From an uncultured Gammaproteobacteria bacterium (lineage in GTDB: Bacteria; Patescibacteriota; Patescibacteriia; Magasanikbacterales; UBA922), in assembly GCA_964592785.1 (NCBI GenBank), contig CAZQHU010000001.1, positions 45,687-109,686 of the forward strand: 64,000 bases of DNA, given 5' to 3'. Every line of letters starts with the position of its first letter. Position 1 is the stretch's first letter. The position numbers and the translations under genes were made by a program. The notes beneath the pieces are model-generated. The model did no database searches and was not told the origin of the DNA. It was given only the letters and a program-made list of their open reading frames with translations. Shown in pieces: positions 13,109 through 57,324 of this stretch.

Positions 13109-14065
13109 AACAATAATACTCTTGGTTGGGGAGTGAAGTCAACAGCTGGCGCTGAGATCTGGGATAGTGAGCCAATTTTTAAAAATGAAAAAATAAATTA
13201 TAAAGATTGGCTCAAACTTCTTTTTTATCCTAAGAAATGGTTTTTGTATCGCTGGGTGAAGAGCGGGGTGAACAAGGTGGAAAAAGAAAATAATATTGTT
13301 AGAGTGTTAGACGTAGGATGTGGCACAGGCGCAAGTCTAGTTGATTTTAAAAGAATTTTTGGTAGAAAAGTTGAGGTTTATGGAGTAGAGGTGGTGCGTT
13401 TGCAAGTAGATTTGGCCAAAGAAAAAATAAGCAAATATGGAGTCTGGTCAGAAGTGAAGTGGTATGATGGGCAAGAATTGCCTTTTTCAGAAAATTATTT
13501 TGATGCTATATATACTTCTGATGTTTTGGGCCATGTGGCTGATGTGCGTTCTTGGCTTGGTGAATTGAATAGGGTTTTAAAATCTGGTGGAACTTTAGCG
13601 ATGTTTGCTGAATCAAAGCTCGGCAAGCACGCTTACATTCGCAATTATTTATCTGAGCATGGTTTGAATGTTGATCCTCATGCTGAGTTTCATATCTCAC
13701 TTTATTCCAAAAATATTTTACAAGAATATTTGGAAGCAGCGGGTTTTCAAATTAAAAAAATGTATAGTGCTTTTTGGGCAAGTTTTTTGGTGCATCCAGA
13801 TGAGTTTTATCATGCATTACAACGTCATCCTGAGCGAAGCCCACAAGGCGGAGTCGAAGGATCTCTTAGTTCTCGGGATGTTTCGGCTTTGCTCAACATG
13901 ACAATTAGAATTTTAAAATTTATTAATAAAGTTTTGTATAAAATCAAGAAAAAACTCCATCCCTATTCTACAGCTTTGTGTGAGTTGTATGGTTTGGTGG
14001 AGATGTATTTGGTTGGTAGATTTGTAGAAGCCCAAGGATATGTGATATTGGCTAAGAAGAAATAA
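13103..14065 (+). CDS. Class I SAM-dependent methyltransferase with an in-frame family-1 repeat insertion (13834-13875)
   Basis: VLDVGCGTGASLVD motif I; insertion translated as HPERSPQGGVEGSL. Confidence 0.6.
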   Translation: MQNNNTLGWGVKSTAGAEIWDSEPIFKNEKINYKDWLKLLFYPKKWFLYRWVKSGVNKVEKENNIVRVLDVGCGTGASLVDFKRIFGRKVEVYGVEVVRLQVDLAKEKISKYGVWSEVKWYDGQELPFSENYFDAIYTSDVLGHVADVRSWLGELNRVLKSGGTLAMFAESKLGKHAYIRNYLSEHGLNVDPHAEFHISLYSKNILQEYLEAAGFQIKKMYSAFWASFLVHPDEFYHALQRHPERSPQGGVEGSLSSRDVSALLNMTIRILKFINKVLYKIKKKLHPYSTALCELYGLVEMYLVGRFVEAQGYVILAKKK

Positions 14066-15659: not shown

Positions 15660-17867
15660 ATGGTTAATTTTAAAAGCCATTTTTTTATGTCAAATAATCC
15701 AATACATTTAGATTTACAAAATAAAAATTTAGAGGATTTACCAGGTATTGATGTAGCCAAATTTAATGAGTTGGCTCGTATTATGCGTGGTTTTATTTTT
15801 GCCACAGTAGAGGCGGCGCGTAGTGGACACCCTGGCGGGCCATCGGCCAAAGTGGAACAGTTTCTTGGCATGGTACTTGGTGGGACAATGGCTTTTGATG
15901 CATTGGATCCCAAAAACCCTGGTCGAGATAGAGTGATTTGGTCGGCGGGACATTGCTCACCTGGCTTGTACGCTGGCTTGGCTTTAATTTATGAAAGTTT
16001 GAGAAAAGCTGGAATAAAATTTGATAAAGAAAAATTGCAAACTTATTTGCCAGAAGATTTGGTTCGCTTTCGCCATCCCGATGGGCCACAGGGTCATATT
16101 GAAAATTATAATCCTTTAACAGATTTTGCCACTGGCCCTTCTGGACATGGTTTGTCTGGTGCTGGTGGTATGGCAGTAGTACACAAATCATGTGGACTGG
16201 ATACGCGAGTTTGGGTGTTTATGGGTGATGCTGAGAGTGAAGAGGGTATGAGTTATGAGGCGCGCAATCTTATCAACACTTTGGGATTGGATAATGTGAT
16301 TGTTAGTCTTGATTATAATCATTATGGGATTGATGGCGATATTGATGAAGTGATTGCTACTCCATATATCAATCATTGGTTGGGGTTGGGTTGGAATGTG
16401 ATTGAAATTGATGGGCACAATATTTTGCAGTGCGTTCATGCTTATCGACAGGCGGCCAAAGGATTTGGAAACAGCAGTCCAACAGTAGTTTTGGCACATG
16501 CTATCAAAGGCAAGGCCTATGGACAAAAAGAAAATACTGCAGATTCACATGGTACGCCAGCCAAATTTGATGAGTATGTACAAATCATGAAAGAATTAGG
16601 ATTTGAGATTCCAGGAGTTGAAAAAGAAGTGTTGAAAGATGTTGAAGTGGTGAGTGAAGCAATTACTTCGGAGTTAGCAGGATATGTGAAAGAAAGACTT
16701 GAAAGTCAAAAGTCAAAAGTCAAAAGTCAAAAAGAATTGACTGGTCAAATGGAGAAAACATTGGCTGGGCGTCAGTTAGTCAATCCAACTAGTATAAAAC
16801 GACCAAAAGAATTACCGACAGAGCTTATTTTTGAACCTGGAACAAAAGTGGCGACTAGAAAAGCCACTCAAGCCTGGTTTGAATGGTTGATGAAACAAAC
16901 AGCATTTTTTTATGCAGGAACAGGGGACTTGAGCAAATCTATTCTTACTGATAAAGCAGAAAAAGTGTTTGGAATAATGTCTCGTGAAAATCCTTTGGGT
17001 AGGGGAATTCGTTTTGGGATAGCTGAGCAAAACATGGCCATGTGGTCTACCGCCCTTACAACCGATCGTTTACCGGGAGGATTTGCACCAGTTTCAGTTT
17101 TTTCTTCTTATGCAGTGTTTACTTCCATGATGACCAATTGTGTACGTTTGACTTTGATCAATAATCATTTAAATCCAGAAAACAAAGGCTTTTTTATTTT
17201 ACTAGCGGCGCATGATGGCCCAGAAACAGGCGAGGACGGACCTACTCATCAGGGGATGTATTGGATGAGTATGTTCACCGCTTATCCAGGAATAAAAGTT
17301 TATAAACCAATGGATGCCAATGAAACAATTGAAATGCTTTTTTACGCTCTAGAACGCGGTGAGCCGATCGCTTTGTCAGTGAGTCGTCCAGATACTATTG
17401 TTTTGGATAGAAGTATTGGAAATTCAAAAGCTAGTGAGGCGGTAAATGGGGCATATGTGTTCTACGAAAGTCAAAAGTCTTTAAAGTCCATAAAGTCAAA
17501 AGTCGTGATTGTGGTTGCTGGTGGAATTACTTTGGCGAATACGATGGAGACAGTGCCGGAGTTGGAAAAACAGGGATTGAGTGTGAAAGTATTAGCAGTA
17601 ACTTCTCCCCAGCTTTTTGAAGAGTTGAGGAAAAATGATCCAAAGAAAGCCGAGGAAATATTTTCTGCTGAAGACAGAAAAAATGTGATAGCCATACACA
17701 ATGGTTGGAAAGGGTTTCTTTATCCGTTTCTTTTGCCAGAAGATTATCTGGAGCGAAATATTGGCATTGATACTTATCTCAAATCCGGCAATATAAAGGA
17801 AGTGTATGAATTGGCTGGGTTGACGACGGAAAATATTAAACAGAAAATTTTAAATATTAAAAAATAA
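15660..17867 (+). CDS. tkt: Transketolase (alternative start at 15687) with two in-frame KS-repeat insertions
   Basis: SGHPGGPSAKVEQFLGMVLGG TPP-binding N-terminus and GDAESEEG motif; insertions at 16703-16733 and 17467-17505. Confidence 0.85.
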   Translation: MVNFKSHFFMSNNPIHLDLQNKNLEDLPGIDVAKFNELARIMRGFIFATVEAARSGHPGGPSAKVEQFLGMVLGGTMAFDALDPKNPGRDRVIWSAGHCSPGLYAGLALIYESLRKAGIKFDKEKLQTYLPEDLVRFRHPDGPQGHIENYNPLTDFATGPSGHGLSGAGGMAVVHKSCGLDTRVWVFMGDAESEEGMSYEARNLINTLGLDNVIVSLDYNHYGIDGDIDEVIATPYINHWLGLGWNVIEIDGHNILQCVHAYRQAAKGFGNSSPTVVLAHAIKGKAYGQKENTADSHGTPAKFDEYVQIMKELGFEIPGVEKEVLKDVEVVSEAITSELAGYVKERLESQKSKVKSQKELTGQMEKTLAGRQLVNPTSIKRPKELPTELIFEPGTKVATRKATQAWFEWLMKQTAFFYAGTGDLSKSILTDKAEKVFGIMSRENPLGRGIRFGIAEQNMAMWSTALTTDRLPGGFAPVSVFSSYAVFTSMMTNCVRLTLINNHLNPENKGFFILLAAHDGPETGEDGPTHQGMYWMSMFTAYPGIKVYKPMDANETIEMLFYALERGEPIALSVSRPDTIVLDRSIGNSKASEAVNGAYVFYESQKSLKSIKSKVVIVVAGGITLANTMETVPELEKQGLSVKVLAVTSPQLFEELRKNDPKKAEEIFSAEDRKNVIAIHNGWKGFLYPFLLPEDYLERNIGIDTYLKSGNIKEVYELAGLTTENIKQKILNIKK

Positions 17868-17933
17868 CTGTCATTCCTGCGAAGGCAGGAATCCAGATTT
17901 TTGATTAGATTCCCACCTTCCCGGGAATGACAA
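17868..17933. repeat. Inverted pair of GTCATTCCTGCGAAGGCAGGAATC-type repeats (family 5) forming a hairpin
   Basis: CTGTCATTCCTGCGAAGGCAGGAATC...GATTCCCACCTTCCCGGGAATGACA; further copies at 33784-33847, 34181-34245 and 44010-44076. Confidence 0.7.
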
Positions 17934-17940
17934 TAAAAAT

Positions 17941-19341
17941 ATGCAAATACCAAAATTTCTCACAGACAAAAATCTCACACCTAACGTCACTATCAATCCT
18001 GCGTTAAATTATCTAGGCACTGAAACAGCTTTTGGTTTTGGCGCAGAAGTAATAAAAGTAGAGAGCTCTAGTAAGTTTTCGCAAGTTTATAAATTTCATG
18101 TTGGCGATACTGGTCCGACTACACCTCAGCCGATCATTGAAACAGCTATTCAAGCACTCAAAAATAAAATGACCAAGTATGGGCATTTTCAGGGTTATCC
18201 AGCGGTTAGACAAAACATTGCCAAATATTGGAGTGAGATTCGGGGTGTGGAAATTAAGCCTGAAAATATTTTATTAGAGCCGGCTGGCAAGTCAGCTATT
18301 GAACTAGCTTTACAAACCCTTATTGCTCCGGGAGATAAAATCATTGTTCAGGATCCTGGATATCCGGTATATGAATCTTTGGCAGAGTTTTATCATCACG
18401 GATCTGTTTTACACTGGCAAGCGTTCAAAGATCAAGAGAAGCAAACTTTGGAGTTTAGAGTTGAAGATTTGGAAAAATTATTGACGGAAAATAAACAAGT
18501 CAAATTATTGGTCATCAATACTCCGCAAAATCCTACTGGCATGATAATTGGACAAGAGAAGTTGGAAGCGGTAGCTGAATTGGTTAGAAAATATAAATTC
18601 TTTGTAATTTTTGATGATATTTATGATCAGATAACTTTTGGTGGACGTCAGCATTTTTCTTTTATTTCTATCCCCGGTATGCTCGATTGGACAGTGAATT
18701 TAAATGGTTATTCCAAAAATTACGCGATGACTGGTTGGCGTTTAGGATTTTGTGTAGCACCAGAGTGGCTTATAGAAATTTTTGGTCGATTGGCGATTAA
18801 TAAATGGAGTAATGTAAATAAGATGGAGCAGATAGTTGCTGGTGCTATTTATGGTGATATAGAATTGGAGGGTTTTAAATATCCAAGTGTGCGTGGACAA
18901 GTACAGGAAATAATTAATAAAGATTTTATTGAATATGAAAAAAAAGGCGGGTTTGTTTCCGAAAGCTTAAATTTGCTTCAGCCGTATGTAGTTTGCAATG
19001 AAGCTGAAGGGGCATTTTATTTATTTCCCAGTTTTCAACGAGTTTTGGATTTAAAATATGTTAAAGAAGATTTAGGTTTAAAAACAGATGTAGATTTGCG
19101 CAATTGGTTTTTACATGAGAAGGGGATAGCTACGTTGTCTGGTAGAGATTTTGGAGCTAGAGGGGCGGGCCATATTCGCTTTTCTTATGCTGAAGACAGA
19201 AATAAGCACATTATTCCGGGCATGAAGCATGTTTTGAAAGTGATTATAGAATTAATTGAAAAGAGTGGGGAAGTGTCGCCTTTGAAAGCAGAAGAAGTGG
19301 ATGAGAAAATACAGAAATTACAAGAGAAATATTTTGTTTAG
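17941..19341 (+). CDS. Class I/II PLP-dependent aminotransferase
   Basis: NTPQNPTG motif; YSKNYAMTGWRLGF (lysine plus arginine region). Confidence 0.7.
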   Translation: MQIPKFLTDKNLTPNVTINPALNYLGTETAFGFGAEVIKVESSSKFSQVYKFHVGDTGPTTPQPIIETAIQALKNKMTKYGHFQGYPAVRQNIAKYWSEIRGVEIKPENILLEPAGKSAIELALQTLIAPGDKIIVQDPGYPVYESLAEFYHHGSVLHWQAFKDQEKQTLEFRVEDLEKLLTENKQVKLLVINTPQNPTGMIIGQEKLEAVAELVRKYKFFVIFDDIYDQITFGGRQHFSFISIPGMLDWTVNLNGYSKNYAMTGWRLGFCVAPEWLIEIFGRLAINKWSNVNKMEQIVAGAIYGDIELEGFKYPSVRGQVQEIINKDFIEYEKKGGFVSESLNLLQPYVVCNEAEGAFYLFPSFQRVLDLKYVKEDLGLKTDVDLRNWFLHEKGIATLSGRDFGARGAGHIRFSYAEDRNKHIIPGMKHVLKVIIELIEKSGEVSPLKAEEVDEKIQKLQEKYFV

Positions 19342-19378
19342 TCTTGCACATTTTTGATTTTTTGTATAATTTATCTAT

Positions 19379-19549
19379 ATGGAAGAAGTATCTAATAATT
19401 ACAATATAGAAAAGGAGAAAATTTGGAAACAATTTTTGCAGAGAATAAGCCAGATAAGGAAGGATTTTTTTGCAAAGCTATCAGTCATACGTTCTCAGAA
19501 TGACCAAAAAAAGATAGAAGATGTAAAAAATAAAATAAATAATATTTAA
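19379..19549 (+). CDS. Possible small protein (56 aa)
   Basis: ATG downstream of a TATAAT box; lysine-rich; not in the ORF track because it is under 60 aa. Confidence 0.2.
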   Translation: MEEVSNNYNIEKEKIWKQFLQRISQIRKDFFAKLSVIRSQNDQKKIEDVKNKINNI

Positions 19550-19559
19550 TTTTAATAAT

Positions 19560-20165
19560 ATGGATGAGGAAATGCTTCCACAACCAGTTGAAATAGGTGA
19601 AAATCAAAGAAGGTTGGAATTATTGGAAACAGTACCATCGGATTTTGGAAATGCAACAGAAGAAGTAGTATCCAGTCTTACTGGGGATGTTAAAAGTGCA
19701 GTGGATCCAAATGATCCTAGACAAGAAGAGCTAGCACAAAAAGCAATAGAAAAGGCAGAAAAGGAAAAAAGATACGCATTTGCTAGAGTAATTTTGCTTG
19801 AGGTTATTGGCAAATATCCAGGTCTTGAAGTGAATAGCATGGCTATTTTGGGTAAAGCCACTAGTTTTAGAGAGGGTGAGGAAAAATCTTCTGTGTTTAT
19901 GGATAATTTTAAAAAAGTGATTGTGGATATGATAAAGTCGGGTCTTAGTCCTTCGCAAATAGAAAGAAAAAAGGATAAAAATCAGCCAAAAAATGAAGTA
20001 AGATTGCCCAGGGCAGGAGTTGTATCAGTAGAGGGGAGAAATGATTTTATTAGAGGAACAAATATGACTGTCACAGAATATGTGGATGAAGCATATAAAA
20101 AAGTTTTATGGGCTTGTGAAGAATATGGGAAAGCTTATAACGCCATGATTGAAGGTACTTCATAA
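19560..20165 (+). CDS. Hypothetical protein
   Basis: 201-aa ORF with host-like composition followed by a strong terminator. Confidence 0.4.
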   Translation: MDEEMLPQPVEIGENQRRLELLETVPSDFGNATEEVVSSLTGDVKSAVDPNDPRQEELAQKAIEKAEKEKRYAFARVILLEVIGKYPGLEVNSMAILGKATSFREGEEKSSVFMDNFKKVIVDMIKSGLSPSQIERKKDKNQPKNEVRLPRAGVVSVEGRNDFIRGTNMTVTEYVDEAYKKVLWACEEYGKAYNAMIEGTS

Positions 20166-20316
20166 AAATATATAAATTTGGACAAAAATAAAAACCCCCG
20201 CCTTTCAGTTAACTTTCGAGGCGGGGTTTATTTTTGAGGTAGCCCCTAGGCGCGTGTTGAGGGCACGGCTTTGGGGCTTGGTTTGGAGGGCATAGAACCT
20301 CCGATTTTCCGACGCC

Positions 20317-20535
20317 TCACCTGCTGGCATGGCGTACGGGTAAAGAAAGAGCCTCGCGGTCGATCGCGATCGGTCGTCTGTCGATCCGAGAAGCGGCATA
20401 GAAGCCGTCTATGAGGACCGAGCCGTCCGGAGCGAAACCAACCACTTGGACGATACCATGCCCCTCACAATGGAACCAACGTCCCACTTGGGGTTCACGG
20501 TCATCGTCAACCAGAAATTCCTTACGTCCTTCCAT
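20317..20535 (-). CDS. Hypothetical 72-aa protein in GC-rich island C
   Basis: GGAGGTGAAAAATG ribosome-binding site; composition contrast with flanks. Confidence 0.4.
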   Translation of the reverse strand: MEGRKEFLVDDDREPQVGRWFHCEGHGIVQVVGFAPDGSVLIDGFYAASRIDRRPIAIDREALSLPVRHASR

Positions 20536-20653
20536 TTTTCACCTCCTTTGTGGAAGGGATAAGAGTAGTATAGGTTGTTGATAAGAATTTTTTAAGAAAC
20601 TTGTCAAGAGTTAATAAATATTTGTCTTATTTACATTTTGTCCACTTTTTTAA

Positions 20654-20682
20654 TTGACAATTTTTAAAAAATTAAGTAACAT
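20654..20682 (+). promoter_or_regulatory. Sigma70-like promoter TTGACA-N17-TAACAT
   Basis: Read directly; matches the promoter architecture at 26866 and 41985. Confidence 0.45.
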
Positions 20683-20689
20683 TTATTTG

Positions 20690-21107
20690 ACGTTGGTCCA
20701 GCGACGTTGCCTTTGGGGATAAGATCCTCACAACGTGTCCTGGAGTAAACCAACGAGTAGTCGAGGGGGCTAAGCCCCAATGTATAAGGATGGCCCACGT
20801 GCCATCCGAAGAACGGCGGTTCCTATACCGCCATGTACACTGGCGGGTTGGCTGCAAGATGCCAACCGCCACTCGCGGGCGCACGTCGCCCGGGTTCCCG
20901 GGGGCTGTGGTTACTTTGCCCCCACGCACTTCAGTGGCTTGCTACCTTTCGAGGCGCAGGCTTAGCTCTCCTGGATTTCCGGGACTGAAGTGACTGCTGA
21001 TGGTTCCCGTCGTGGTACTGTCCAAGGAGGGGGGAAGATTAGAGCAGATAATGTCTTCCCGCACCTCATACTTTAGACACCACCCAAAAGGGTGGTGTTT
21101 TTTTATT
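20690..21107 (+). ncRNA. Candidate structured noncoding RNA of about 415 nt, promoter to intrinsic terminator, GC-rich, class unknown
   Basis: Promoter at 20654-20682; terminator ACACCACCCAAAAGGGTGGTGTTTTTTT at the 3-prime end; multiple internal hairpins; only short ORFs in all frames. Confidence 0.35.
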
Positions 21108-21214
21108 TTGTTAAATTACTTAATTTTGTCTATGGATGAGATAATAATATCTAAGAGATGGATTTTATAGTATGAAGTTGACATTTTTGGCTAATTTATA
21201 TATAATCAAAACAC

Positions 21215-21310
21215 TTTTAGGAATGTCATGCTGAACTTGTTTCAGCATCTTTCCATAAAATGTATTTTTTAAATGATTTGTATTGAGAAAGACCCTGAAA
21301 CAGGTTCAGG
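21215..21310. repeat. Twin-hairpin repeat element (ATGCTGAACTTGTTTCAGCAT ... ACCCTGAAACAGGTTCAGGGT) immediately upstream of infB; second copy at 36985-37080
   Basis: Near-identical copy after the pyrH-like gene; the two hairpins are inverted copies of each other. Confidence 0.65.
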
Positions 21311-23350
21311 GTGATAAACATTATGAACGTCACAGAACTCGCTAGACAATTGAGAATAAACACCAAAGAATTGTTGGATGTACTCCCGCAGTATGGTTTT
21401 GATATCGGAGCTAGAGCGGTAAAAGTAGATGACAAAGTTGCAGATAAGATTATGCGTCAGTGGAGGTATATTAAGCGAGATTTGGAAGAAAAGAAAAAGA
21501 AAGAAATAGAAGAGAGAAAACTCAAAGAAAAGGAATTGCGTCGAGAAAGTGGTCAGACAGTAGAACTACCAGAAGTGATTACAGTTAGACTTTTTGCAGA
21601 AAAATTAAATTTACCGGTTACTCAGATTATTACCGAGCTCATGAAGAATGGTATTTTGGCCAATCAAAATCAAAATATTGATTATGATACAGCGGCTATC
21701 TTAGCTGGTGAGTTGGGTTTTTTTGTAAAAAAAGAAGAAGGTGAAACCATTCGTAAAGCTCAGAGTGAAGAAGAAAAGGCCAAAGCTCTGGAAGAAGCTT
21801 TGAGTAAATTGGAAAATTTGGAACCTCGTTCTCCTGTGGTAGTAGTGATGGGTCATGTTGATCATGGTAAGACCAAATTATTGGATTCTATTAGAAATGC
21901 CAATATTATTGATACTGAAGCCGGTGGCATTACTCAGCATATTGGTGCTTATCAGACTATCTGGAAAGACCCCAAGACCAAAGAAGAAAGAGCTCTTACT
22001 TTCATTGATACACCGGGCCATGAAGCTTTTACAGTGATGCGCAGTCGTGGAGCCAAGATTGCGGATATTGCTATTATGGTGGTGGCGGCCGATGATAGTG
22101 TCAAACCTCAGACTGAGGAAGTTATCAAGATTATTCAAGCAGCCAAATTGCCGTTTGTCGTGGCGATCAATAAGATCGATAAAGAAGGCGCCGATCCTAC
22201 CCGGGTGCGCGCAGATTTGGCGCAACGAGGTATTCAGAGTGATGAATGGGGTGGTGCTGTGCCTATGGTAGATATCTCTGCTAAACAAAATTTAAACATA
22301 GACAAATTATTGGATGTCATTCTCTTGGTGGCGGATATGAATGCTGATAAAATTCAAGCTAACCCTCATATTCCAGCGATTGGTACGATTATTGAATCAC
22401 ATGTGGATAAGGGGATGGGTCCGGTGGCCACTGTTCTAGTACAAGCCGGGACTCTACGTACCAATGATCCTTTGGTAGTTAATGGTGAAATTTATGGAAA
22501 AGTAAGAGCCATGAAAAACTACAAAGGCGAAAATATTAGTGAAGCTATTCCTTCCACCCCTGCGCAAATTATTGGTTTCAAAGTGGCTCCAGAAGTAGGG
22601 GATATTCTAGATGTAGGCAGGGCTGACAACGCTGAGAAAATCGATGTGCGTCAAAAACGTGGTTTGCAAACCGGAGCGGAAAAACAAACCATTGTCGTGG
22701 CCGAAGAAGGAGATGAAAACGTCAAAAAAACTTTAAATCTACTTATCAAAGCCGATGTTTTGGGTTCTTTGGAAGCGATCATTGGTTCTTTGGAAAAATT
22801 GAAACATGAAGAAGTGGGAGTAAAAATTGTTGGTAAGGGCTTGGGTAATATTACAGAGGATGATGTGCATAAGGCCGAAGCCGGTGAAGCGTTGGTTGTG
22901 GGTTTCAATGTAAATGCCACGGGCATTGCCGAGGAATTGATGAATGATAAAAATATCCAGTTCAAACACTATGATATTATTTATGATTTGATCAATTGGG
23001 TAAAAGAAGAGCTGGAGAAAATGTTAGATGTAGAAAAAATTGTTACAGAAATAGGCCGAGTAAAAGTTTTAGCTATTTTTAGAACTGATAAAAATGCCAT
23101 GACTATAGGCGGAAGAGTGGAGGATGGTAAAGTTATTCCTGGTTTATTGGCGCGTATCAAGCGTGATGGTCTATTGATCGGTACCGGAAAGATTTCTCAG
23201 TGTCAAGTCGGTCAAGCAGTAATGAAAGAAGTAATTCAAGGCACAGAATGTGGTATGCGTTTTGAAGGAAGAGAAAAAATTGAAGAAGGTGATGTTTTGG
23301 AGATTTACCGAGAAGAAAGTAAGATTAGAAAAATTATTTTTGAAAAATAA
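21311..23350 (+). CDS. infB: Translation initiation factor IF-2
   Basis: G-domain VVVMGHVDHGKTKLLD, DTPGHEAF, NKID; full-length architecture. Confidence 0.9.
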   Translation: MINIMNVTELARQLRINTKELLDVLPQYGFDIGARAVKVDDKVADKIMRQWRYIKRDLEEKKKKEIEERKLKEKELRRESGQTVELPEVITVRLFAEKLNLPVTQIITELMKNGILANQNQNIDYDTAAILAGELGFFVKKEEGETIRKAQSEEEKAKALEEALSKLENLEPRSPVVVVMGHVDHGKTKLLDSIRNANIIDTEAGGITQHIGAYQTIWKDPKTKEERALTFIDTPGHEAFTVMRSRGAKIADIAIMVVAADDSVKPQTEEVIKIIQAAKLPFVVAINKIDKEGADPTRVRADLAQRGIQSDEWGGAVPMVDISAKQNLNIDKLLDVILLVADMNADKIQANPHIPAIGTIIESHVDKGMGPVATVLVQAGTLRTNDPLVVNGEIYGKVRAMKNYKGENISEAIPSTPAQIIGFKVAPEVGDILDVGRADNAEKIDVRQKRGLQTGAEKQTIVVAEEGDENVKKTLNLLIKADVLGSLEAIIGSLEKLKHEEVGVKIVGKGLGNITEDDVHKAEAGEALVVGFNVNATGIAEELMNDKNIQFKHYDIIYDLINWVKEELEKMLDVEKIVTEIGRVKVLAIFRTDKNAMTIGGRVEDGKVIPGLLARIKRDGLLIGTGKISQCQVGQAVMKEVIQGTECGMRFEGREKIEEGDVLEIYREESKIRKIIFEK

Positions 23351-26814: not shown

Positions 26815-26865
26815 TCGAGGGATCTCTTTGTTATAAAATACCTGCCTCTTCGGCGGGTTTTGTTG

Positions 26866-26894
26866 TTGACATTTTTTTTGATAGTTGTAAGATA
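26866..26894 (+). promoter_or_regulatory. Sigma70-like promoter TTGACA-N16-TAAGAT
   Basis: Read directly; near-identical to the promoter at 41985-42012. Confidence 0.45.
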
Positions 26895-26923
26895 AAGTTA
26901 TCTCGTTGGCATGGAGGTGCCAG

Positions 26924-27070
26924 ATGGATTCGATCAGTCCTGGATGGGTGGTCATTGGCCTGGTGGGTCTGTTCATCTTCGGATTTCTCATCCGGAGGGC
27001 AGTGACAGTGCACCGCCACAACGCGCGCGTCTCGGATTCCGAGAAGAAGACGGAGGAGGCGACGTGCTGA
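26924..27070 (+). CDS. Small hydrophobic peptide (48 aa; single TM then a basic/acidic tail), GC-rich island D
   Basis: GGAGGtgccagATG ribosome-binding site; MDSISPGWVVIGLVGLFIFGFLIRRAV...; own promoter and terminator. Confidence 0.4.
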   Translation: MDSISPGWVVIGLVGLFIFGFLIRRAVTVHRHNARVSDSEKKTEEATC

Positions 27071-27147
27071 AGGTCGCCACACCCGAGTGCAGTCGGGTGA
27101 AGTTTCGTAGGAGTGGGCGCGTACTGCATAGCGCGCCCCTTCACAAC

Positions 27148-27186
27148 AAAAAACCACCTCGAATTTTCGGGGTGGGTTTATTTTAG
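27148..27186 (+). terminator. Intrinsic terminator after the small peptide gene
   Basis: AAAAAACCACCTCGAATTTTCGGGGTGGGTTTATTTT. Confidence 0.6.
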
Positions 27187-27458
27187 GGAAGTACAGAGGG
27201 TGTCACCAGACACACCCCCTGTACGAGAAAGGAACGGTTTTCCTCAATACGTTGGGTTCAAGGAACCCTGTCTTTGTCCACGGCACAAGAGCAAGTAACT
27301 GGAAATGGGGGTTGGGGCTCAAGCATCGTCGGCATGAGACGGGGTTGGAACAGGCACAAGGCACTGCGACGAACCACAGACGTATGGGCGGCGAGGAAAC
27401 TGGCAATCGTATTAGACCATGATTTTTCTAAAAAGTAAACTTATTTTGTGGATAAAAA

Positions 27459-27718
27459 ATCCCCGCGTCAAATGCGGGGTTTAAAAATGAGGCGTCCCGG
27501 GCGACGGAGCAAGGTGCCTCCGTCGCCCGGGGAAAGGAACACGTCAGTTCAGCATGAGGGCACTTACGTCCCCTTAGTTAAGGGCGGGGTCATCACACCT
27601 CGCGCCCGTAGCCACACTGGTCTTTTTCTTTTGGTTCACTCGTCGCTACTACAAAAGAGGTTGGGCAGGCGCAGAACGCGCCCTCAACCGGATCCAGTTT
27701 TGAACCGACTGAACTGAC
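27459..27718 (-). ncRNA. Candidate structured RNA of about 260 nt on the minus strand (12-bp terminal closing helix ACGUCAGUUCAG/CUGAACUGACGU, a large GC hairpin, and a terminator)
   Basis: Promoter-like TTTACA-N17-TTAAAT at 27725-27760 on the minus strand; terminator CCCCGCATTTGACGCGGGGATTTTTT. Confidence 0.3.
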
Positions 27719-27798
27719 GTTACTATATTTAAACACATTATATTTAATTTGTAAATGCCTTGATTTTTTAGTTTGAAAAGAGTAAAATAAGATTAAAT

Positions 27799-28671: not shown

Positions 28672-31600
28672 ATGTCAAAATACGATCATAAAAAAATTGA
28701 AAGTAAATGGCCCGCCTCCGCTAAAGCTACGGCGGGTAAACACTATGATCCGAAGGCTATTGAAAATAAATGGCAATTATTTTGGGAACGTGATAAAACT
28801 TTTGAAGTTACTGAGGATGAAACTAAAAAGAAATTTTATGTTTTGGATATGTTTCCTTATCCTTCTGGTGCTGGTCTTCATGTTGGTCATCCGAAGGGCT
28901 ATATTGCGACTGATGTTATGGCTCGCATGAAAATGATGCAGGGCTTCAATGTTCTTCATCCAATGGGTTGGGATGCTTTTGGACTTCCAGCAGAGAATTA
29001 TGCAATTGCGAATAAAGTTCATCCTTCGGTGGCGACAGCCAAAAATATTGAAACTTTCAAAAAGCAACTGGGTTTACTAGGTTTTACTTATGATTGGGAG
29101 AGGGAAGTGAATACTACTGATCCAAATTATTACAAATGGACCCAGTGGGCCTTTATTCAAATGTTTAAGCGTGGTTTGGCTTATGAATCTTTTGAACCGA
29201 TCAACTGGTGCCCCACTTGTCAGACTGGCCTTGCTAATGAAGATCTTGAAGATGGTAAGTGCGAACGTTGTGGCACTTTGGTCGAACGTAAGCCATTACG
29301 TCAATGGGTTTTGAAAATTACAGATTATGCTGAAAGATTATTAAATGATATTGATAAATTAGAACAATGGCCAGAACCGATCAAAGAAATGCAAAGAAAT
29401 TGGATTGGGAAGAGTGAAGGTGCAGAAATAAACTTTCGCGTCATGTTGAGCGAAGTCGCGTCGGACGCGACGAAGTCGAAACATCCCGTGGAACAAAGGG
29501 ATCCTTCCCCGCAAGGCGGGGCTCAGGATGACGATGTGGTGCTTACAGTTTTTACCACTCGTCCTGACACTCTTTTTGGGGTAACATATATGGTCGTTGC
29601 TCCTGAACATCCGTTGCTCGGGAATAATGAATTAGGAATTAAGAATTATGATGAAGTGTTGGGGTACATTGCCAAAGCAAAAAACAAATCAGACTTAGAA
29701 CGTACAGAATTACAGAAAGAAAAGACTGGAGTCGAGTTGAAGGGAGTGAAGGCAGTCAACCCAGTGAATGGCGAAGAGATCCCTATTTTTGTAGCGGATT
29801 ATGTTTTGATGAATTATGGCACTGGAGCCATCATGGCTGTGCCAGCACATGATGAGAGAGATTTTGAGTTTGCAAAGAAGTTTGGTTTGCTAATGAAAGA
29901 AGTAGTAGTTGAACAAGTAAATTCTCGTTTTAGTGATTCTGAGCCACGCAGAATAGCTATAGCCATTGTTGAAAATGATAAAGGGGAAATTCTTATACAA
30001 TCAGATACCCGTAATAATAAAACCACTTATTGTTTGCCAGGTGGGGGGGTAGATGAAGGAGAAGACATTAGAGAGGCATCTTTGAGGGAAATTAAAGAAG
30101 AGACGGGTTATATCGAATTTGAGAGTATAAAGAAAGTGGGAACTTTGGAAGCAAATTATTACAATCCTAGAAGAGAAATTAACCGACAAGCTTTAGCCAC
30201 CTGTTTTTCAATGAAATTAAAAAGTAATAAAAAGATAGAAGTTCAATTTTCTGAAACAGAAAAACAAGGGTTGATTAAACACTCTTGGTTGAGTAAGGAG
30301 GAAGCAATGAAAGTTTTATCAAGCGAAAATGCTTCTTCTGGTGAGGATCTTGCTTTATTTAAACGTTATTTGAAGAATAAAGATGAAGCCTTTTCAAATT
30401 TAGGTGTTGTTATCAATTCTGACTTCTTAAACGGCTTAGAAACAAGAGACGCCAAAGAAAAAATGATTCAATATTTAGAAGAAAAAAATATTGGTAAAAG
30501 AAAAGTGCAATACAAACTTCGTGATTGGGTATTTTCTCGTCAACGTTATTGGGGTGAACCAATTCCGCTTGTTCATTGTGAGAATTGTGAGAATAAAAAA
30601 TATAATTATATTTTTATTCATGGTTTTTCTTCAAGTTCTGAAAGAGGTTTTAAACCTTGGTTGAAAGAAGAATTAGAAAACAGAGGTCATAAGGTTTGGA
30701 ATCCTGATTTACCAAATACCAATAATCCTAGTGTTAATGAACAAGCTGAATTTATTTTGAAAAATTCACCATTTGCCATTGATGATAATTTAGTTTTGGT
30801 TGGACACAGTTTGGGTGGACCAGCGATTTACCGAATTTTAGAATCAATAAGCCACAAGATTGCTCGGGCTGTTTTGGTTGATCCGGTAGTTCGTCCACGA
30901 TTTAATGATCAAGATCGTCCAGAAGTGGTGGCTAGTTGTGATTGGAAGTTTAATTGGAAAAAAATAAAAAATAATTGTCAGCAATTTATTATTTTGGGTG
31001 ATATAAATAGACCAATTATAAAAAAGGAACATTTAATAGAGTTAGAAAAAAATCTATCAGCTGATTTATGGTGGGTGACTCCAAGAAATTATCATTTTAG
31101 CAGTCGTAATGGTGCAGTAGAAGATGAACCGACAATATTAAAAGCGGCCGTAGCTAATGGCTGGATTCCAGTTCCAGAAAAAGACTTGCCACTGGAACTT
31201 CCCAAAGTAGAAAACTATGAACCAAGTGGAACAGGGGAATCACCTTTGGCCAATATTGAAGAATGGGTGAATACCAAGTGTCCGGTGTGTGGTGGGCATG
31301 CTAAACGAGAAACAAACACTATGCCGCAGTGGGCGGGAAGCTGTTGGTATTACCTACGCTATTGTGATCCGAAGAATAAAAAAGAATTAATTAATAAAGA
31401 AAAAGAAAAATATTGGAATCCAGTGGATCTTTATGTTGGTGGAGCAGAACATGCTACTCGTCACCTCATCTATGCTAGATTTTGGCATAAGTTTCTTTAT
31501 GATATTGGCGTAGTTTCTCATGAGGAGCCATTTATCAGATTACAAAATGTGGGTTTGATTTTGGCCGAAGATGGTCGCAAGATGAGTAAGCGCTGGAATA

Positions 31601-34216: not shown

Positions 34217-34245
34217 TAAGATTCCTGCTTTCGCAGGAATGACAT
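34181..34245. repeat. Family-5 inverted repeat pair spanning the comEC stop codon
   Basis: CGTCATCCCCGCGAAGGCGGGGATC...ATTCCTGCTTTCGCAGGAATGAC. Confidence 0.65.
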
Positions 34246-34254
34246 TTATTAAAT

Positions 34255-36973: not shown

Positions 36974-36984
36974 TGTGATATTTG

Positions 36985-37080
36985 TCATGCTGAACTTGTT
37001 TCAGCATCTTTTCCAAATTTTATTCAGCGTAGCAAGTATGATTTTATAAAAGACCCTGAAACAAGTTCAGGGTGACAAAC
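36985..37080. repeat. Second copy of the twin-hairpin element (see 21215-21310), followed by a terminator
   Basis: GTCATGCTGAACTTGTTTCAGCATCTT...GACCCTGAAACAAGTTCAGGGTGA. Confidence 0.65.
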
Positions 37081-41936: not shown

Positions 41937-42019
41937 TGTGTATTTATATAATATAAAACCGACCAAGTGGTCGGTTTTTTGTTCTTGACATTTTTTATGT
42001 TTATGTTAAGATTGTTTGG

Positions 42020-42283
42020 CTGATGAACCTTGCGTCACGTGTATGGATGGCCTGAGAGCCATAGCACTGATGTGAGTTTTGTTGGCTGGGGGCTGACAGC
42101 GGTCCGATACGGACTGAGTTTTCGACGAAAGTCGACGATTGTGGTCTCGGACCGCTGTCGCCCCTGTTTTGAACGGAGGCTAAGGGGGTGTGTTTTTCTG
42201 TATACACATCCCCCGCGTTCCAAATAAATAAATTTTGTTTATTTAGAATGAAAAATAATCCCGATATTATGTCGGGATTATTT
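42020..42283 (+). ncRNA. Candidate GC-rich structured RNA (promoter TTGACA-N16-TAAGAT at 41985-42012; long helix GGGGCTGACAGCGGTCCGA/TCGGACCGCTGTCGCCCC; terminator)
   Basis: Promoter nearly identical to that of island D; nested hairpins; terminator AATCCCGATATTATGTCGGGATTATTTTT. Confidence 0.3.
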
Positions 42284-43945: not shown

Positions 43946-44009
43946 AATACTTTGTAATTATTGAAATTTAAGTGTTTTTATGGTATCATAATGGGGTACA
44001 ATAATCAAA

Positions 44010-44076
44010 CGTCATTCCTGCGAAGGCAGGAATCTTTCTTTAAATCAAATAAGATTCCCGCTTTCGCGGGAATGAC
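44010..44076. repeat. Family-5 inverted repeat pair (GTCATTCCTGCGAAGGCAGGAATC ... GATTCCCGCTTTCGCGGGAATGAC)
   Basis: Read directly; intergenic between glyA and the next gene. Confidence 0.7.
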
Positions 44077-45443: not shown

Positions 45444-45631
45444 TCAAGGAATAATGAATAAAGAATAAGGAATAAAAAATGCCCCGTATATTGCGAGGCA
45501 TTTTTATTTAGATTCATCAGTTCCCCAAAATTTTTATTTTTTAAAAACTTTGGGGATATGGAACTGACGAAGAACAAAAGGTACAAGCGAATCAGCCCCA
45601 CATCCCAGCGCGAAAAAACGCAGAGCAGGAG

Positions 45632-45910
45632 CTAGGCATCCAGGCGACCGGCATTGTCCAGGGAGAAGTAGAACCTCACATCGGTCAGGGTGAGGGGGGC
45701 GCTGGGATCCTCGGGGACTTCGTATTCGATGTAGAGAAGTCTTCCGCTGATCTTGGCCTCACAGAGGAACTGCGCCATTCCTCGGCCTTGGAATCGGCAG
45801 ACCCGTTGTGGGCCCACTTCGAAGGTGCAAAATCCTTCGCCGTTCGGCCCGGTGAGAGTGAGCAAGCTCACTCTTGCACTCTTGAACTGCATGGGCATCT
45901 TCCCTGGCAT
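45632..45910 (-). CDS. Hypothetical 92-aa protein in a GC-rich island
   Basis: GAGGAAACGAAATG ribosome-binding site; composition contrast with flanks. Confidence 0.4.
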   Translation of the reverse strand: MPGKMPMQFKSARVSLLTLTGPNGEGFCTFEVGPQRVCRFQGRGMAQFLCEAKISGRLLYIEYEVPEDPSAPLTLTDVRFYFSLDNAGRLDA

Positions 45911-45989
45911 TTCGTTTCCTCGTTGTTGAAACCCAAAATAACATTAGCCCAAAAATGTTTTTTTGTCAAGAGTAAACAAAAAAACTGGC

Positions 45990-47642
45990 TTAAACCAGTT
46001 TTTTCGTCATATAGGTTTTTTCTAGTTTGTAGCCAAGTTTTCGATAATAATCTCTTACTCCCACGCCAGAAATTACTGCGATTTTTTGGTATTTATTTTT
46101 CTTGGCGATTTTCTCGGCTTCAGCTACCATTTTTTTTCCCAGGCCTTTGTGTTGACTAGCAGTCTTTTCATCTTTGCCAACGTTGACCAGTTGACCGTAA
46201 GTGTGGAGTTCGCGGATGAAAGCCAAGTTTTCTAAGTTTATTAAGTTTTTTAAGTTGACTAAATTATTTTGATTTGGAAGTCGGAGACGGAGAAAAGCGA
46301 AGACTACCTGTCTTTTGTTGTCTTCAAAAGAGAGAAAATATTCTGTACCACCAGTAGTTTTATATTTTTCTATAAATAGTTTTGGTTCAAGTGTTTTTTT
46401 GTTTTTATGTTTTATTGCTTTTATGTCAATATGCCCAACTTCTCGACAACGGAGACAATGACAGACAAGACCACGTTTGCTCATTTCTTTTTTTAATTCT
46501 TCGCGTAGATTGGTGATAGCGTTGCCAGCTTCGATATCAGGATTGGGGATGTCGCGAATAAGACGAGAAATACGGCAATAGCGTGGCGTGGCAGTCTTCA
46601 TTTTTATGAGAGTTTCAAACAGTTTTTTATCTGAGTAAGGTTTGTATCTCCCGGCTTTATACCATTTATACAATTTTGCTGATTTGATCACTGTACAAGG
46701 ATAAATTTTTATCATATCTGGTTTGAATCCCGGATCAGAAAAAAGTAATTTATACATTTCTAAATCATGTTTTGGAGTGGTTCCTGGTAAATCTGGCATA
46801 AAGTGAAGATCTACTTTAAATCCAGCTTGGCGGAGCAGGAGCATAGCATCTTTGAATTGTTTTACAGTGTGTCCACGATCAACAAGTTTTAGTATTTTAT
46901 CATCCGGGGCTTGGAGACCAAGTTCAATCCTGGTACAGCCCATTTGTCGCATGTGAAAGATTGTTGTGGGATTGACAGCGTCGGGCCGAGTTTCTAGAGT
47001 GAGCCCGATGATGCGGTGTTTGGCTTTTTCATTTTTGCGTTGGGCTTCTCTCAGAGCTCTTTGTAGGGAAGAAAGGGATTCTTCGACTTCGGTCTTCGTC
47101 CTTCGCTCAGGATGACCAAAATCGTTGCATGCACGAAAAGACTCCAATATAAACCAATACTGGTACTTTAGCGGGTAGGCATTCCAAGTTCCACCTTTGA
47201 TAATAAATTCAATTTTGTCAGTTGGATGACCATTTTGTTCTAGCATCATTATGCGACGACGCATTTGTTCATAAGGGTCAAATTTTAGAGCCAAAGCCCG
47301 AGCAGCGGCCGGTTCACTAGATAAATAACTTTTGGGCATTTTTGTTTCAGTAGGACAATAAACACAATCTCCTGGGCAATTGTAGGGCTTAGTCAGGGAA
47401 GTAATGATAGCCACTCCAGAGAGGGTGCGGATCTGGGCTTTACGCAAGAAAAATTCAAACTGCTTGTCATTTTTTAGACTTTTATTTTTTAATAATTTCT
47501 GGTAAGCTAGTAACAGTTTATGATTTGCAGGTTGAGAAATTTTAAGTTTACCACAAATTTTTCGGCGCAGTTCATCAAATTCAACCTTGGATTTAGGCTT
47601 GTGTTCATAAATATAAATAATAATTTTTTCTAAATTATTCAT
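45990..47642 (-). CDS. Elp3-like radical-SAM / GNAT protein (tRNA U34 carboxymethyluridine synthase homologue) with an in-frame family-1 repeat insertion (47074-47118)
   Basis: CPGDCVYCP (CxxxCxxC) radical-SAM motif; C-terminal GNAT QHKGLGKKMVAEAE. Confidence 0.8.
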   Translation of the reverse strand: MNNLEKIIIYIYEHKPKSKVEFDELRRKICGKLKISQPANHKLLLAYQKLLKNKSLKNDKQFEFFLRKAQIRTLSGVAIITSLTKPYNCPGDCVYCPTETKMPKSYLSSEPAAARALALKFDPYEQMRRRIMMLEQNGHPTDKIEFIIKGGTWNAYPLKYQYWFILESFRACNDFGHPERRTKTEVEESLSSLQRALREAQRKNEKAKHRIIGLTLETRPDAVNPTTIFHMRQMGCTRIELGLQAPDDKILKLVDRGHTVKQFKDAMLLLRQAGFKVDLHFMPDLPGTTPKHDLEMYKLLFSDPGFKPDMIKIYPCTVIKSAKLYKWYKAGRYKPYSDKKLFETLIKMKTATPRYCRISRLIRDIPNPDIEAGNAITNLREELKKEMSKRGLVCHCLRCREVGHIDIKAIKHKNKKTLEPKLFIEKYKTTGGTEYFLSFEDNKRQVVFAFLRLRLPNQNNLVNLKNLINLENLAFIRELHTYGQLVNVGKDEKTASQHKGLGKKMVAEAEKIAKKNKYQKIAVISGVGVRDYYRKLGYKLEKTYMTKKLV

Positions 47643-53088: not shown

Positions 53089-53802
53089 TTATTTAAGGAT
53101 TTCTTTCAGCTCATTTAAACTATCACTCCATTTCTCACCATCAAACCATTCCAATCCTGTGAATTGTAGTTTGTAAGTGTCAGTTGGACGTTGGGCAGAT
53201 CCCAAGTAAATATATTTTTTATTATTTTCTTTGGCGTAGAGAATAGCTCGGAGCATCATACCCATGCCGAGGTTGGATAAACCGACCGTTAAAGAATAGA
53301 AAGGATAGGAGTAGTGTAGGATTTCGTTCGTTTCGTGACAGATGGCGTAGCCGATGATGAGGTCATCCTGAGCGGATCCGCCAGTTGGCGGAGGAGTCGA
53401 AGGATCCCTTTCTAACTCGGGATTCTTCACTTCGTTCAGAATGACGTATTTGAAAAGTTTATTAAAATTATGTTCAGTCGTTAATAATTCTTTTATCTTG
53501 TTGGCAGAAAAAACTCCTTTACCAAATTTAGTTTCGTAAAAATCTTTAGCAATTTTACCAATTTGCCAGTTGTAACTAGTAACTGGTAACTCGTAACTAG
53601 TAAATGTTAAGTTTTCAGTTTTTTTTAAAATGCGTTTATTTTCGCTTGACAATTTAAACTTGTTCAAATCAATTCGTAAACTTCGCGTTTGGTACATGCT
53701 TCCCAAGTGTTCGCGGGTGAATAAATAACCCTCGTTGTAGAGAGAGTTGATGTTGTCGTCGGAAAAATTAGTAGTAGTTTTTTCGTTCCATTTTAGGTAC
53801 AT
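53089..53802 (-). CDS. Ate1/Bpt-like aminoacyl-tRNA--protein transferase (tentative) with an in-frame family-1 repeat insertion (53363-53446)
   Basis: C-terminal YIYLGS...YKLQFTGLEWFDGEKW resembles the Bpt/Ate1 C-domain. Confidence 0.4.
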   Translation of the reverse strand: MYLKWNEKTTTNFSDDNINSLYNEGYLFTREHLGSMYQTRSLRIDLNKFKLSSENKRILKKTENLTFTSYELPVTSYNWQIGKIAKDFYETKFGKGVFSANKIKELLTTEHNFNKLFKYVILNEVKNPELERDPSTPPPTGGSAQDDLIIGYAICHETNEILHYSYPFYSLTVGLSNLGMGMMLRAILYAKENNKKYIYLGSAQRPTDTYKLQFTGLEWFDGEKWSDSLNELKEILK

Positions 53803-55540: not shown

Positions 55541-55716
55541 AAGTCTAGATTATTTTATCAACAATTGACTAAAAAATCAAGTTTTGAAAATGCTTGAAAA
55601 ATTTTTGGATTTGTGTTTAAATAAATTGAAAGCTTGAATAAAAGAGCTGATGAGGTTGGGATTTACTCGTCCTAGTAGAGTTGATTTGGTCAGCTCTTTC
55701 ACAACTGGAGGCAATC

Positions 55717-56871: not shown

Positions 56872-56940
56872 TCTCCCTTGGGAGGTGGAGGGAATCGTGG
56901 TCTGGTTGATTAGTGCGATAAGTAGAAAGGAGGTGTGATC

Positions 56941-57279
56941 ATGATGCCTGAACTCGTCAGAACCTTTGGAGGACATCAGTTTCCGCTCTCCATTTACATG
57001 GGAGAGAGGAAGGTGGTGGTCCAGGTACCAGAAGAAGGAGAACTCAAGACCATCGAGCGTGGTTCTGGCAATGGCAGGAAGGTCATCCTCTACCCGCTGA
57101 CCATGGTCGATGGAGTGAATCACCGTTTCGTGTTCAATCACGAAAATGGTGTTCCGATTTCGGGCTACATCGAGGAAGCCAAGGGACACCGTCTCAAGCC
57201 GGGAGTGAAATTCACCTTTTCGGTGATCACGAGCGGTGGTCGGTGCCCGGTCCAGGCTCGAGTGGAACTGCAGTCATAG
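56941..57279 (+). CDS. Hypothetical 112-aa protein, GC-rich island G
   Basis: AAAGGAGGTGTGATCATG ribosome-binding site. Confidence 0.4.
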   Translation: MMPELVRTFGGHQFPLSIYMGERKVVVQVPEEGELKTIERGSGNGRKVILYPLTMVDGVNHRFVFNHENGVPISGYIEEAKGHRLKPGVKFTFSVITSGGRCPVQARVELQS

Positions 57280-57324
57280 TCCTGGGGGCTTGACTGACTG
57301 GCCGGCTTGTGTTAGGATAGTTTT

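Follow-up and report, generated by a model that had tools for sequence, protein, structure and literature searches.

A strain-variable, GC-rich unit upstream of infB in Candidatus Magasanikbacteria, a candidate gene for a structured non-coding RNA of no known class

In the present study, a GC-rich unit located between an aminotransferase gene and infB was analysed in a 64,000-nt stretch of contig CAZQHU010000001.1 (hereafter the window), which infB places in Candidatus Magasanikbacteria of the Patescibacteria, or Candidate Phyla Radiation (CPR). The unit, designated module c (20611-21164, + strand), is a 554-nt insertion-deletion (indel) unit delimited by a three-way alignment, and it comprises an 80-nt AT-rich promoter region, a GC-rich core, a terminator and a 57-nt AT-rich tail. 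The core would be transcribed into an RNA of about 415-417 nt (20689-21107, + strand). Herein, we propose that module c is a self-contained accessory unit giving rise to a stable, untranslated RNA of ~415 nt that acts in trans, and that this RNA is neither an infB leader nor a housekeeping RNA, a proposal to which we assign even chances. The transcription signals, the fold prediction, the lack of a coding signal and the presence or absence of the unit among strains are the observations from which the proposal is built.

The putative RNA gene is delimited by transcription signals on both sides. A sigma-70-type promoter is present at 20654-20682 (+ strand), composed of the -35 element TTGACA (20654-20659), a 17-nt spacer and the -10 element TAACAT (20677-20682), with 10 of the 12 positions agreeing with the consensus, and transcription would start near 20689-20690. 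With six occurrences in the 64-kb window and 0.2 expected by shuffling, the arrangement TTGACA-N17-TANNAT is enriched approximately 30-fold, and these sites include the RNA promoter, the infB promoter and a site upstream of the tRNA cluster. A chance match at the RNA promoter is considered unlikely. On the other side, an intrinsic terminator was identified at 21075-21107 (+ strand), with an 11-bp stem (21075-21100), an AAAA loop and a T-run extending to 21107 (pair probability 0.96). Promoter and terminator bracket the GC-rich core exactly, and both belong to the indel unit itself. The original prediction had placed this promoter, a GC-rich stretch of about 415 nt and a canonical terminator upstream of the infB leader at these positions, and each was recovered here, including the 11-bp stem with its T-run and a core GC content of 0.58-0.62 compared with 0.38 for the window (38.3% overall). 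In addition, a 12-nt perfect inverted repeat, with its left arm AAAATTAAGTAA at 20668-20679 and its right arm TTACTTAATTTT at 21116-21127, brackets the transcribed part; the arms lie 58 and 38 nt inside the indel boundaries and do not coincide with them. Neither a target-site duplication nor a terminal inverted repeat was detected at 20611/21164. An insertion sequence (IS) element or a miniature inverted-repeat transposable element (MITE) was rejected on the grounds that terminal repeats, a duplication and a second copy (in the window or at 165 loci) were all missing.

The transcript is predicted to be densely folded. For 20688-21107 on the + strand, the minimum free energy was -190 kcal/mol, corresponding to z = -6.3 against dinucleotide shuffles, none of which folded as well, and the - strand of the same segment gave z = -4.3. 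The original prediction had reported many nested hairpins, and the multibranched fold obtained here agrees with that description. In total, 22 helices were predicted, most of them with a mean pair probability of at least 0.9. The predicted 5' domain (20691-20755, + strand, 65 nt) consists of four stacked helices forming one long hairpin, with pair probabilities of 0.90-0.96, and its first helix starts 2 nt past the inferred transcription start. The central multibranch domain (20756-20998, + strand, ~240 nt) carries seven hairpin arms with probabilities of 0.9-1.0 on a 7-bp closing helix with a probability of only 0.60, and two of its loops are palindromic, CCACGU (20795) and CACGU (20882). In the 3' hairpin (21024-21067, + strand), the Shine-Dalgarno-like sequence AAGGAGGGGGG is paired with UCUUCCC..CCUC, and no ATG, GTG or TTG is found 4-12 nt downstream of it. 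The terminator comes directly after this last hairpin. Among the control segments, three pyruvate-kinase-like (PK-like) coding pieces ranged from z = 0 to -2, and a piece of infB gave z = -0.1.

No sign of a protein product was obtained for this segment. A Shine-Dalgarno sequence combined with a start codon, as seen in the protein cassettes with their GGAGG sites, is missing from every frame of 20640-21130, in which the longest open reading frames (ORFs) are 51-85 aa. Moreover, GC content hardly differs between codon positions (0.54-0.62) in any of the six frames of the RNA segment, while the genuine GC-rich genes of the window dip to 0.37-0.45 at codon position 2. The concatenated six-frame translation had no match among 5.8 billion proteins at E <= 10; the word-indexed search behind this result is insensitive, having also missed the WD40 similarity of the neighbouring 72-aa ORF, and the negative is supportive rather than conclusive. 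No frame matched Pfam, and tblastn with 150 WD40 proteins gave no signal in the RNA segment. A pseudogene or hidden protein gene was therefore rejected, the protein search, Pfam, codon-position GC and WD40 tblastn all being negative. A lack of coding potential had been claimed in the original prediction, with conservation of an overlapping 60-85-aa ORF named as counter-evidence; the flat codon-position GC and the missing Pfam and protein matches agree with that claim, and none of those ORFs is conserved or has a protein or Pfam match. A non-coding product is thus the best reading of 20689-21107 that the sequence allows.

The RNA was compared with known classes using cmscan and Rfam 15 (4227 families), at the gathering score on the whole window and at E <= 10 with permissive filters on 20100-21350 and on the RNA alone. 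At the gathering score, the window yielded three tRNAs only, and at E <= 10 nothing was found over the core; the only matches were sub-threshold ones riding on the terminator, e.g. GcvB at 23.8 bits (threshold 42). ARAGORN likewise reported three tRNAs in the window and no transfer-messenger RNA (tmRNA). RNase P RNA (RF00010/RF00011) was rejected for want of a covariance-model match or P4 core at E <= 10, and tmRNA for want of a tRNA-like domain and tag frame in ARAGORN and Rfam. OLE, GOLLD, ROOL, raiA, HEARO, group I/II introns, 6S and the RNA of the signal recognition particle (SRP) were not supported, no core match being present in Rfam 15. A type III toxin-antitoxin RNA or a retron msr-msd was rejected because tandem and direct repeats are missing, the neighbours are infB and a 72-aa WD40-like ORF, and PADLOC gave no match. 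A defence, toxin-antitoxin or phage context was rejected as well, since PADLOC and PHROGs were blank for the local ORFs. The Rfam scan that the original prediction had suggested thus returned no known family, its failure to find RNase P or tmRNA was borne out by Rfam and ARAGORN, and the class stays unassigned.

Searches for homologues were equally negative. In blastn with 'distant' settings, no relative of the RNA was found among phage and plasmid records; four exact 20-24-mers of the RNA were not found in IMG/VR, and one exact 22-mer was not found in JGI metagenomes. An nhmmer search of 163 loci around infB, drawn from GTDB genomes and JGI metagenomes, revealed no relative, nor did nhmmer and blastn detect another copy elsewhere in the window. 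The RNA is therefore described as an orphan, a candidate non-coding RNA of no known class. Our literature search on GC-rich cassettes or non-coding RNAs in Patescibacteria and Magasanikbacteria found nothing specific.

The distribution of the unit among close relatives indicates that it is an accessory element. Two short Logan contigs, L001 (SRR8925817) and L002 (SRR32129872), cover the locus. L001 is identical to the window (100%) over 20235-21253, RNA unit included, and left of 20235 it joins straight to the 3' end of the aminotransferase gene, 19337-20234 being missing. L002 has the same left junction, retains the cassette with the 72-aa ORF and shares ~99% identity in common genes; at 20610 it runs into the infB promoter, and 20611-21164 (554 nt) are replaced by ~12 nt. 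The loss of module c in L002 thus removes the RNA promoter, the RNA, the terminator and the AT-rich tail together. In the relatives L007 and L090, the aminotransferase gene, a terminator and the infB promoter are directly adjacent, which is presumably the ancestral arrangement, and the RNA unit is absent from the slot in all related species examined. These comparisons indicate that the RNA gene is accessory and dispensable: a near-identical strain lacks the unit, and it is therefore not essential. An RNase P RNA gene would be expected to be essential, and at this locus the unit is deleted in the ~99%-identical L002 and absent from the slot in relatives, although a copy at another place in the genome of L002 is conceivable. 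Insofar as the original prediction implied a conserved RNA of the RNase P or tmRNA type, that picture is wrong, for the unit is missing in a ~99%-identical strain and from the same slot of all related species.

Next to module c lies a small divergent protein gene of 72 codons (20317-20535, - strand), with GGAGG (20546-20542) placed 6 nt before its ATG and promoter-like sites at 20567-20607 on the same strand (TTAAAA-17-TATACT at 20595-20567; TTGACA at 20607-20602). The original prediction of a small GC-rich divergent gene with a GGAGG site was confirmed. The protein is on record only in the two Logan contigs, L001 and L002. A HMMER scan of 1.84 billion representative proteins gave 379 matches at E <= 1e-3, all of them long multi-repeat WD40 proteins, which align repeat by repeat to residues ~23-51, with one alignment reaching back to residue 2; the WD40 signature (..DDR...W..C-EGHG-V--V-FAPDGS-L--G) spans residues ~10-55. 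The protein remained below the Pfam WD40 threshold and had no Pfam match even at E <= 10, no full-length homologue was found, and the sole relative with a solved structure is PDB 5yzv (PkwA). When modelled with AF2 from the single sequence, the protein forms a four-strand beta meander, with low confidence (pLDDT 58). From its sequence, the protein amounts to ~1.3 WD40-like repeats, or one blade. It resembles WD40 repeat proteins in the repeat signature and in the modelled four-strand meander, and differs from them in having just one of the several blades that make up a propeller. Between the window and L002, the ORF shows three differences (20497, 20515 and 20527), all at third codon positions and synonymous, a pattern with a chance of ~1/27. 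In our view, the ORF is a genuine small gene that may derive from part of a WD40 gene. Because L002 carries this gene without the RNA, the two are not an obligate pair. The joint 'island C' of the original prediction therefore holds insofar as both parts are present, and does not hold as a unit, the parts being separable modules.

If module c is expressed, we envisage the following course. The strong sigma-70-type promoter would initiate transcription at ~20689, and the transcript would fold at once into the 65-nt 5' hairpin, the 240-nt multibranched core and the 3' hairpin; termination at the strong intrinsic terminator would then release a stable, stand-alone, untranslated RNA. Such a structured RNA may act in trans by binding protein or by associating with itself, and a strain-specific role, e.g. 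in conflict or host interaction, would be likelier than one in core physiology. Its expression, stability, action in trans and any function are inferred.

Several observations weigh against this proposal. The RNA is represented by the identical copy in L001 only, with no diverged homologue, and hence neither covariation nor selection supports it. Its loss in the sister strain shows that it is dispensable. Without the terminator, the z score of the RNA segment drops to -4.6, and other GC-rich segments also fold well (z from -3 to -5.7, with -4.4 for the mRNA region of the 72-aa gene and -5.7 for 27450-27735). The fold signal, although strong, is not confined to the RNA segment, and part of it may be a property of such GC-rich DNA. 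In addition, none of the predicted loops is a GNRA tetraloop, a feature often found in large functional RNAs.

The most serious alternative is that module c is inert foreign or relic GC-rich DNA, taken up by a CPR cell with natural competence or deposited by a mobile element, and that it sits in a tolerant slot without function and is transcribed, if at all, incidentally to its signal-rich AT flanks. We consider this explanation unlikely, yet deserving of real weight. It would account for an RNA without a homologue in anything searched and for its dispensability in the sister strain, and the neighbouring 72-aa ORF resembles a ~1.3-repeat fragment of a multi-repeat WD40 gene. Unusually good folding extends to every GC-rich island, whether coding or non-coding, and promoter-like sites are common in the region (10 found vs 4.5 expected). 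However, the bracket appears too good for chance, with a perfect -35 element, a 17-nt spacer, a position 7 nt before a helix-forming 5' end and an 11-bp terminator after the last hairpin, and promoter and terminator are both part of the indel unit. Furthermore, no trace of a former protein gene is left in any frame, ~88% of a typical bacterial genome is coding, and cassettes of like build encode proteins with canonical Shine-Dalgarno sites, and one GC-rich cassette is conserved between the species of L004 and L007, as judged by eye; cassettes of this type are therefore not junk in general. Much less probable is a two-gene system formed by the RNA and the divergent 72-aa WD40-blade protein, either a ribonucleoprotein or toxin-antidote-like, expressed from a shared 155-nt promoter region. 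The two genes are adjacent, divergent, both GC-rich and found together in the window and L001; but L002 keeps the protein gene with synonymous changes only and lacks the RNA, no defence or toxin-antitoxin model matches, and tandem repeats like those of type III antitoxins are missing from the RNA. We therefore hold a two-gene system to be very improbable.

A messenger or leader function is also improbable. According to this explanation, either an internal ORF of 51-67 aa would be translated, or AAGGAGG (21024-21030) would drive a 12-codon mini-ORF from AUU at 21038 to UAG at 21074, translation then modulating read-through to infB. The unit indeed has the orientation of infB, whose promoter follows 70 nt downstream; the AUU is preceded at 7 nt by a perfect Shine-Dalgarno-like sequence, and the stop codon abuts the terminator stem. 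Against it, the Shine-Dalgarno-like sequence is paired in the predicted fold (pair probability 0.8-0.98), AUU starts are very rare, and the longer ORFs have no Shine-Dalgarno sequence, GC at position 2 at least equal to that at position 3, and no matches. No known leader or riboswitch family matches, infB has its own consensus promoter, and L002 works without the unit. Since infB keeps this promoter with or without the unit, the RNA is not an infB leader, and a cis-regulatory leader or riboswitch of infB was rejected for the same reasons: a consensus promoter intervenes, and L002 has infB and its promoter without the unit. The least probable of the explanations considered is a known large RNA (RNase P, tmRNA, 6S/Ms1-like, a group I/II intron remnant, OLE, GOLLD, ROOL, raiA or HEARO) so diverged through CPR drift that it falls below detection. 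CPR RNAs are often atypical, and the ~400-nt size with stand-alone promoter and terminator resembles RNase P RNA genes, yet no Rfam family reached E <= 10 over the core, ARAGORN found no tmRNA, the 5' end is not GUGYG, and absence from the sister strain and from the syntenic slot of relatives is incompatible with an essential RNA at this locus.

A stand-alone accessory RNA, which we prefer, can be compared with several known systems. The concept of the phage moron is owed to Hendrix and Juhala. Morons are recognized by their own promoter, their own terminator, deviant GC content and variable presence (PMC2920897). Module c shares the promoter and terminator of its own and the deviant GC content (0.58-0.62 vs 0.38), and it likewise lies between conserved genes, varies among relatives and occupies a slot that holds different inserts. 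Unlike a moron, it resides in a CPR chromosome, next to infB, the aminotransferase gene and further chromosomal genes, its local ORFs have no PHROG matches and no similarity to phage records was found, and its payload would be a non-coding RNA instead of a protein gene. Module c is moron-like in layout but not a moron. Long GC-rich intergenic regions in AT-rich genomes are enriched for structured non-coding RNAs (PMC6429828), and the large RNAs of this kind (OLE, GOLLD, ROOL, raiA and HEARO; PMC6429828) share with the present candidate the long GC-rich intergenic region in an AT-rich genome, a multibranched predicted fold and a terminator of its own; in contrast, the candidate matches none of their models, has no homologues and no GNRA-type loops, and varies among strains. 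An RNase P RNA gene is also stand-alone, ~400 nt long, GC-rich relative to the genome and equipped with its own promoter and terminator, whereas the candidate contains neither P4 nor any other conserved core and is missing at the locus in the sister strain and in relatives.

More speculatively, Magasanikbacteria, and perhaps further Patescibacteria, could possess a cassette system not yet described, of which the RNA would be one payload. In such a system, GC-rich small proteins and structured RNAs, furnished with native-style promoters, Shine-Dalgarno sites and terminators, would occupy intergenic hot spots and be gained, lost or swapped as whole alleles among strains that are identical in other respects; the RNA would then be a functional, fast-turning-over accessory gene, which might associate with itself via its palindromic CACGU(G) loops and could play a part in strain-level conflict or host interaction. 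We consider this extended proposal decidedly unlikely as it stands. If the RNA is real and functional, it would represent a bacterial RNA of >400 nt with a complex fold and no relatives, encoded by an accessory gene of an ultra-small CPR symbiont. To our knowledge, hardly any RNA biology is known experimentally in CPR symbionts. A genome of 38% GC is dotted with cassettes of 55-66% GC that have their own expression signals and differ between strains that are 99-100% identical, and this variation points to cassette-level strain diversification in Patescibacteria. This context may be of greater importance than the RNA, and the strain-variable cassette landscape is arguably also the more testable lead.

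The interval in which module c is found is itself composite. Between the aminotransferase gene (17941-19341) and infB (start at 21311 or 21323, end at 23350; Pfam-confirmed) lie ~2 kb with two GC-rich blocks (20201-20550 and 20701-21100), and GC peaks of 0.60-0.625 were observed in 200-nt windows across 20201-21100 against 0.383 window-wide. By these alignments, the interval consists of three separable modules stacked at a hot spot of insertion, and because relatives have the aminotransferase gene directly beside infB, the whole 2 kb would consist of inserted modules. Module a (19337-20234, + strand) contains AT-rich ORFs of 56 and 201 aa, neither with a family match, and a bidirectional terminator (20183-20236); it is confined to the window haplotype, L001 and L002 carrying instead a different terminator directly after the aminotransferase gene, and it constitutes a third independent presence/absence polymorphism at this hot spot. 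Module b (20235-20610, - strand) is GC-rich and comprises the 72-aa ORF with its 5' untranslated region, the promoter-like sites and 82 nt of GC-rich sequence on the 3' side; all three haplotypes (window, L001 and L002) carry it, with a common left boundary at 20235 beyond which the DNA differs. Downstream of module c, the infB promoter TTGACA-17-TATAAT (21178-21206, + strand) is kept in all haplotypes and separates infB from the RNA unit, which has the same orientation and lies 70 nt upstream of this promoter. The closest protein relatives of infB were a GTDB species representative (73% identity) and a JGI metagenome locus (71%). Exact-protein look-ups gave no match for the 201-aa ORF, the aminotransferase, infB from its GTG start or P0151.

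A different structured element of ~243 nt occupies this slot in two other species of Magasanikbacteria (L008:182-424 and L085:4113-4354), where it has a promoter and a terminator and is followed directly by the infB promoter. Identity between the two copies is 91%, some of the differences at paired positions keep the stems, and the terminator is preceded by an AAGGAGG-like tract; neither copy had an Rfam match at the gathering score. The element resembles the window RNA in slot, orientation, terminator and AAGGAGG-like tract, and differs from it in sequence ancestry: homology was rejected because the local alignment (p ~0.02-0.03, post hoc) was not significant against shuffles, and a covariance model built from the two copies had no match at 20683-21107.

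Further GC islands (0.5-0.66) were observed in the window at 26851-27700, 41984-42230, 45551-45950, 55651-57600 and 61151-61650. In these islands, native-looking AT-rich promoters, canonical Shine-Dalgarno sites and terminators surround GC-rich payloads, namely orphan small proteins without Pfam, PADLOC or PHROG match and one PK-like barrel protein. The small GC-rich ORFs with Shine-Dalgarno sites encode 92 aa (45632-45910, - strand), 131 aa (61191-61586, - strand), 54 aa (26906-27070, + strand) and 114 aa (56935-57279, + strand); the 92-, 131- and 114-aa ORFs had no Pfam, PADLOC or PHROG match, and the 54-aa ORF, checked against Pfam only, had no match there. The 131-aa ORF is CxxC zinc-ribbon-like, and the 54-aa ORF has one predicted membrane helix. 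Each of the four adjoins a recurring terminator hairpin of family D2 (10046, 27149, 45474 and 61108).

Strain variation was also observed at two of these islands. In the 99.4%-identical contig L083, positions 27187-27797 are replaced by 88 AT-rich nt. These 611 nt contain two GC-rich stretches (~27190-27440 and ~27490-27720), neither with a convincing ORF and both apparently read on the minus strand from a promoter-like site at ~27745-27720, with terminators at 27485-27450 and, bidirectional, at 27183-27149; the z score of -5.7 for 27450-27735 was obtained on both strands. This segment is a candidate for a second strain-variable non-coding cassette. The PK-like ORF (55717-56871) encodes a GC-rich, barrel-only protein (Pfam PF00224, 6.6e-41), and in L164 (1358-2518) it is swapped, from about codon 9 to the stop, for an allele with 57% protein identity. 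On the flanks in L164, protein identity is 100% for MraY (a 373-aa glycosyltransferase-4 gene, 54419-55540), and DNA identity is 98% for the next gene together with its 3' region. The swap shows all substitution types plus indels. This 57%-identical allele (L164 and L165, flanks 98-100% identical) is the sole close relative of the PK-like protein, genuine pyruvate kinases reaching ~32%.

Minor observations concern the remaining cassettes and repeats. A TTGACA-16-TAAGAT promoter at 41984-42012, near-identical to one at 26866, precedes a GC-rich stretch of ~205 nt. A 38-nt motif (GGAGG..GGGGGTGT..CCCCC..TTCCAAA..AATAAA) is common to the 3' end of 41984-42240 and to 57283-57575 (blastn E = 5e-4), the latter being the 3' untranslated region after the 114-aa gene; the motif may mark either an RNA end common to both or a short peptide that is conserved (..SPAFQINK.. 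/ ..APPKFQTNK..). Two related species, L007 (101-750) and L004 (450-800), carry a syntenic cassette of 65-73% GC, located upstream of a methyltransferase-like gene and encoding small cysteine-rich proteins that are homologous by eye (..MAKDKA..DPRCLEGYIEGRC.. / ..MAWDKI..EPACVEAYVSGEC..). If this homology holds, some GC-rich cassettes would be old and would have kept their GC content in genomes of 40% GC. Short GC-rich palindromic repeat families of the types GTCATCCTGAGCGAAG...CGAAGGATC and GTCATTCCTGCGAAGGCAGGAATC, repetitive extragenic palindrome (REP)-like or MITE-like, are scattered in the window, with copies at 13824-13872, 29439-29532, 47068-47116, 51734-51768, 52394-52502 and 53362-53410, and further ones at 17863-17893, 34220-34250 and 44007-44036. 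Finally, a hairpin element of ~90 nt (TGTCATGCTGAACTTGTTTCAGCA...) is present in the infB leader (21224-21314) and again at 36981-37079.

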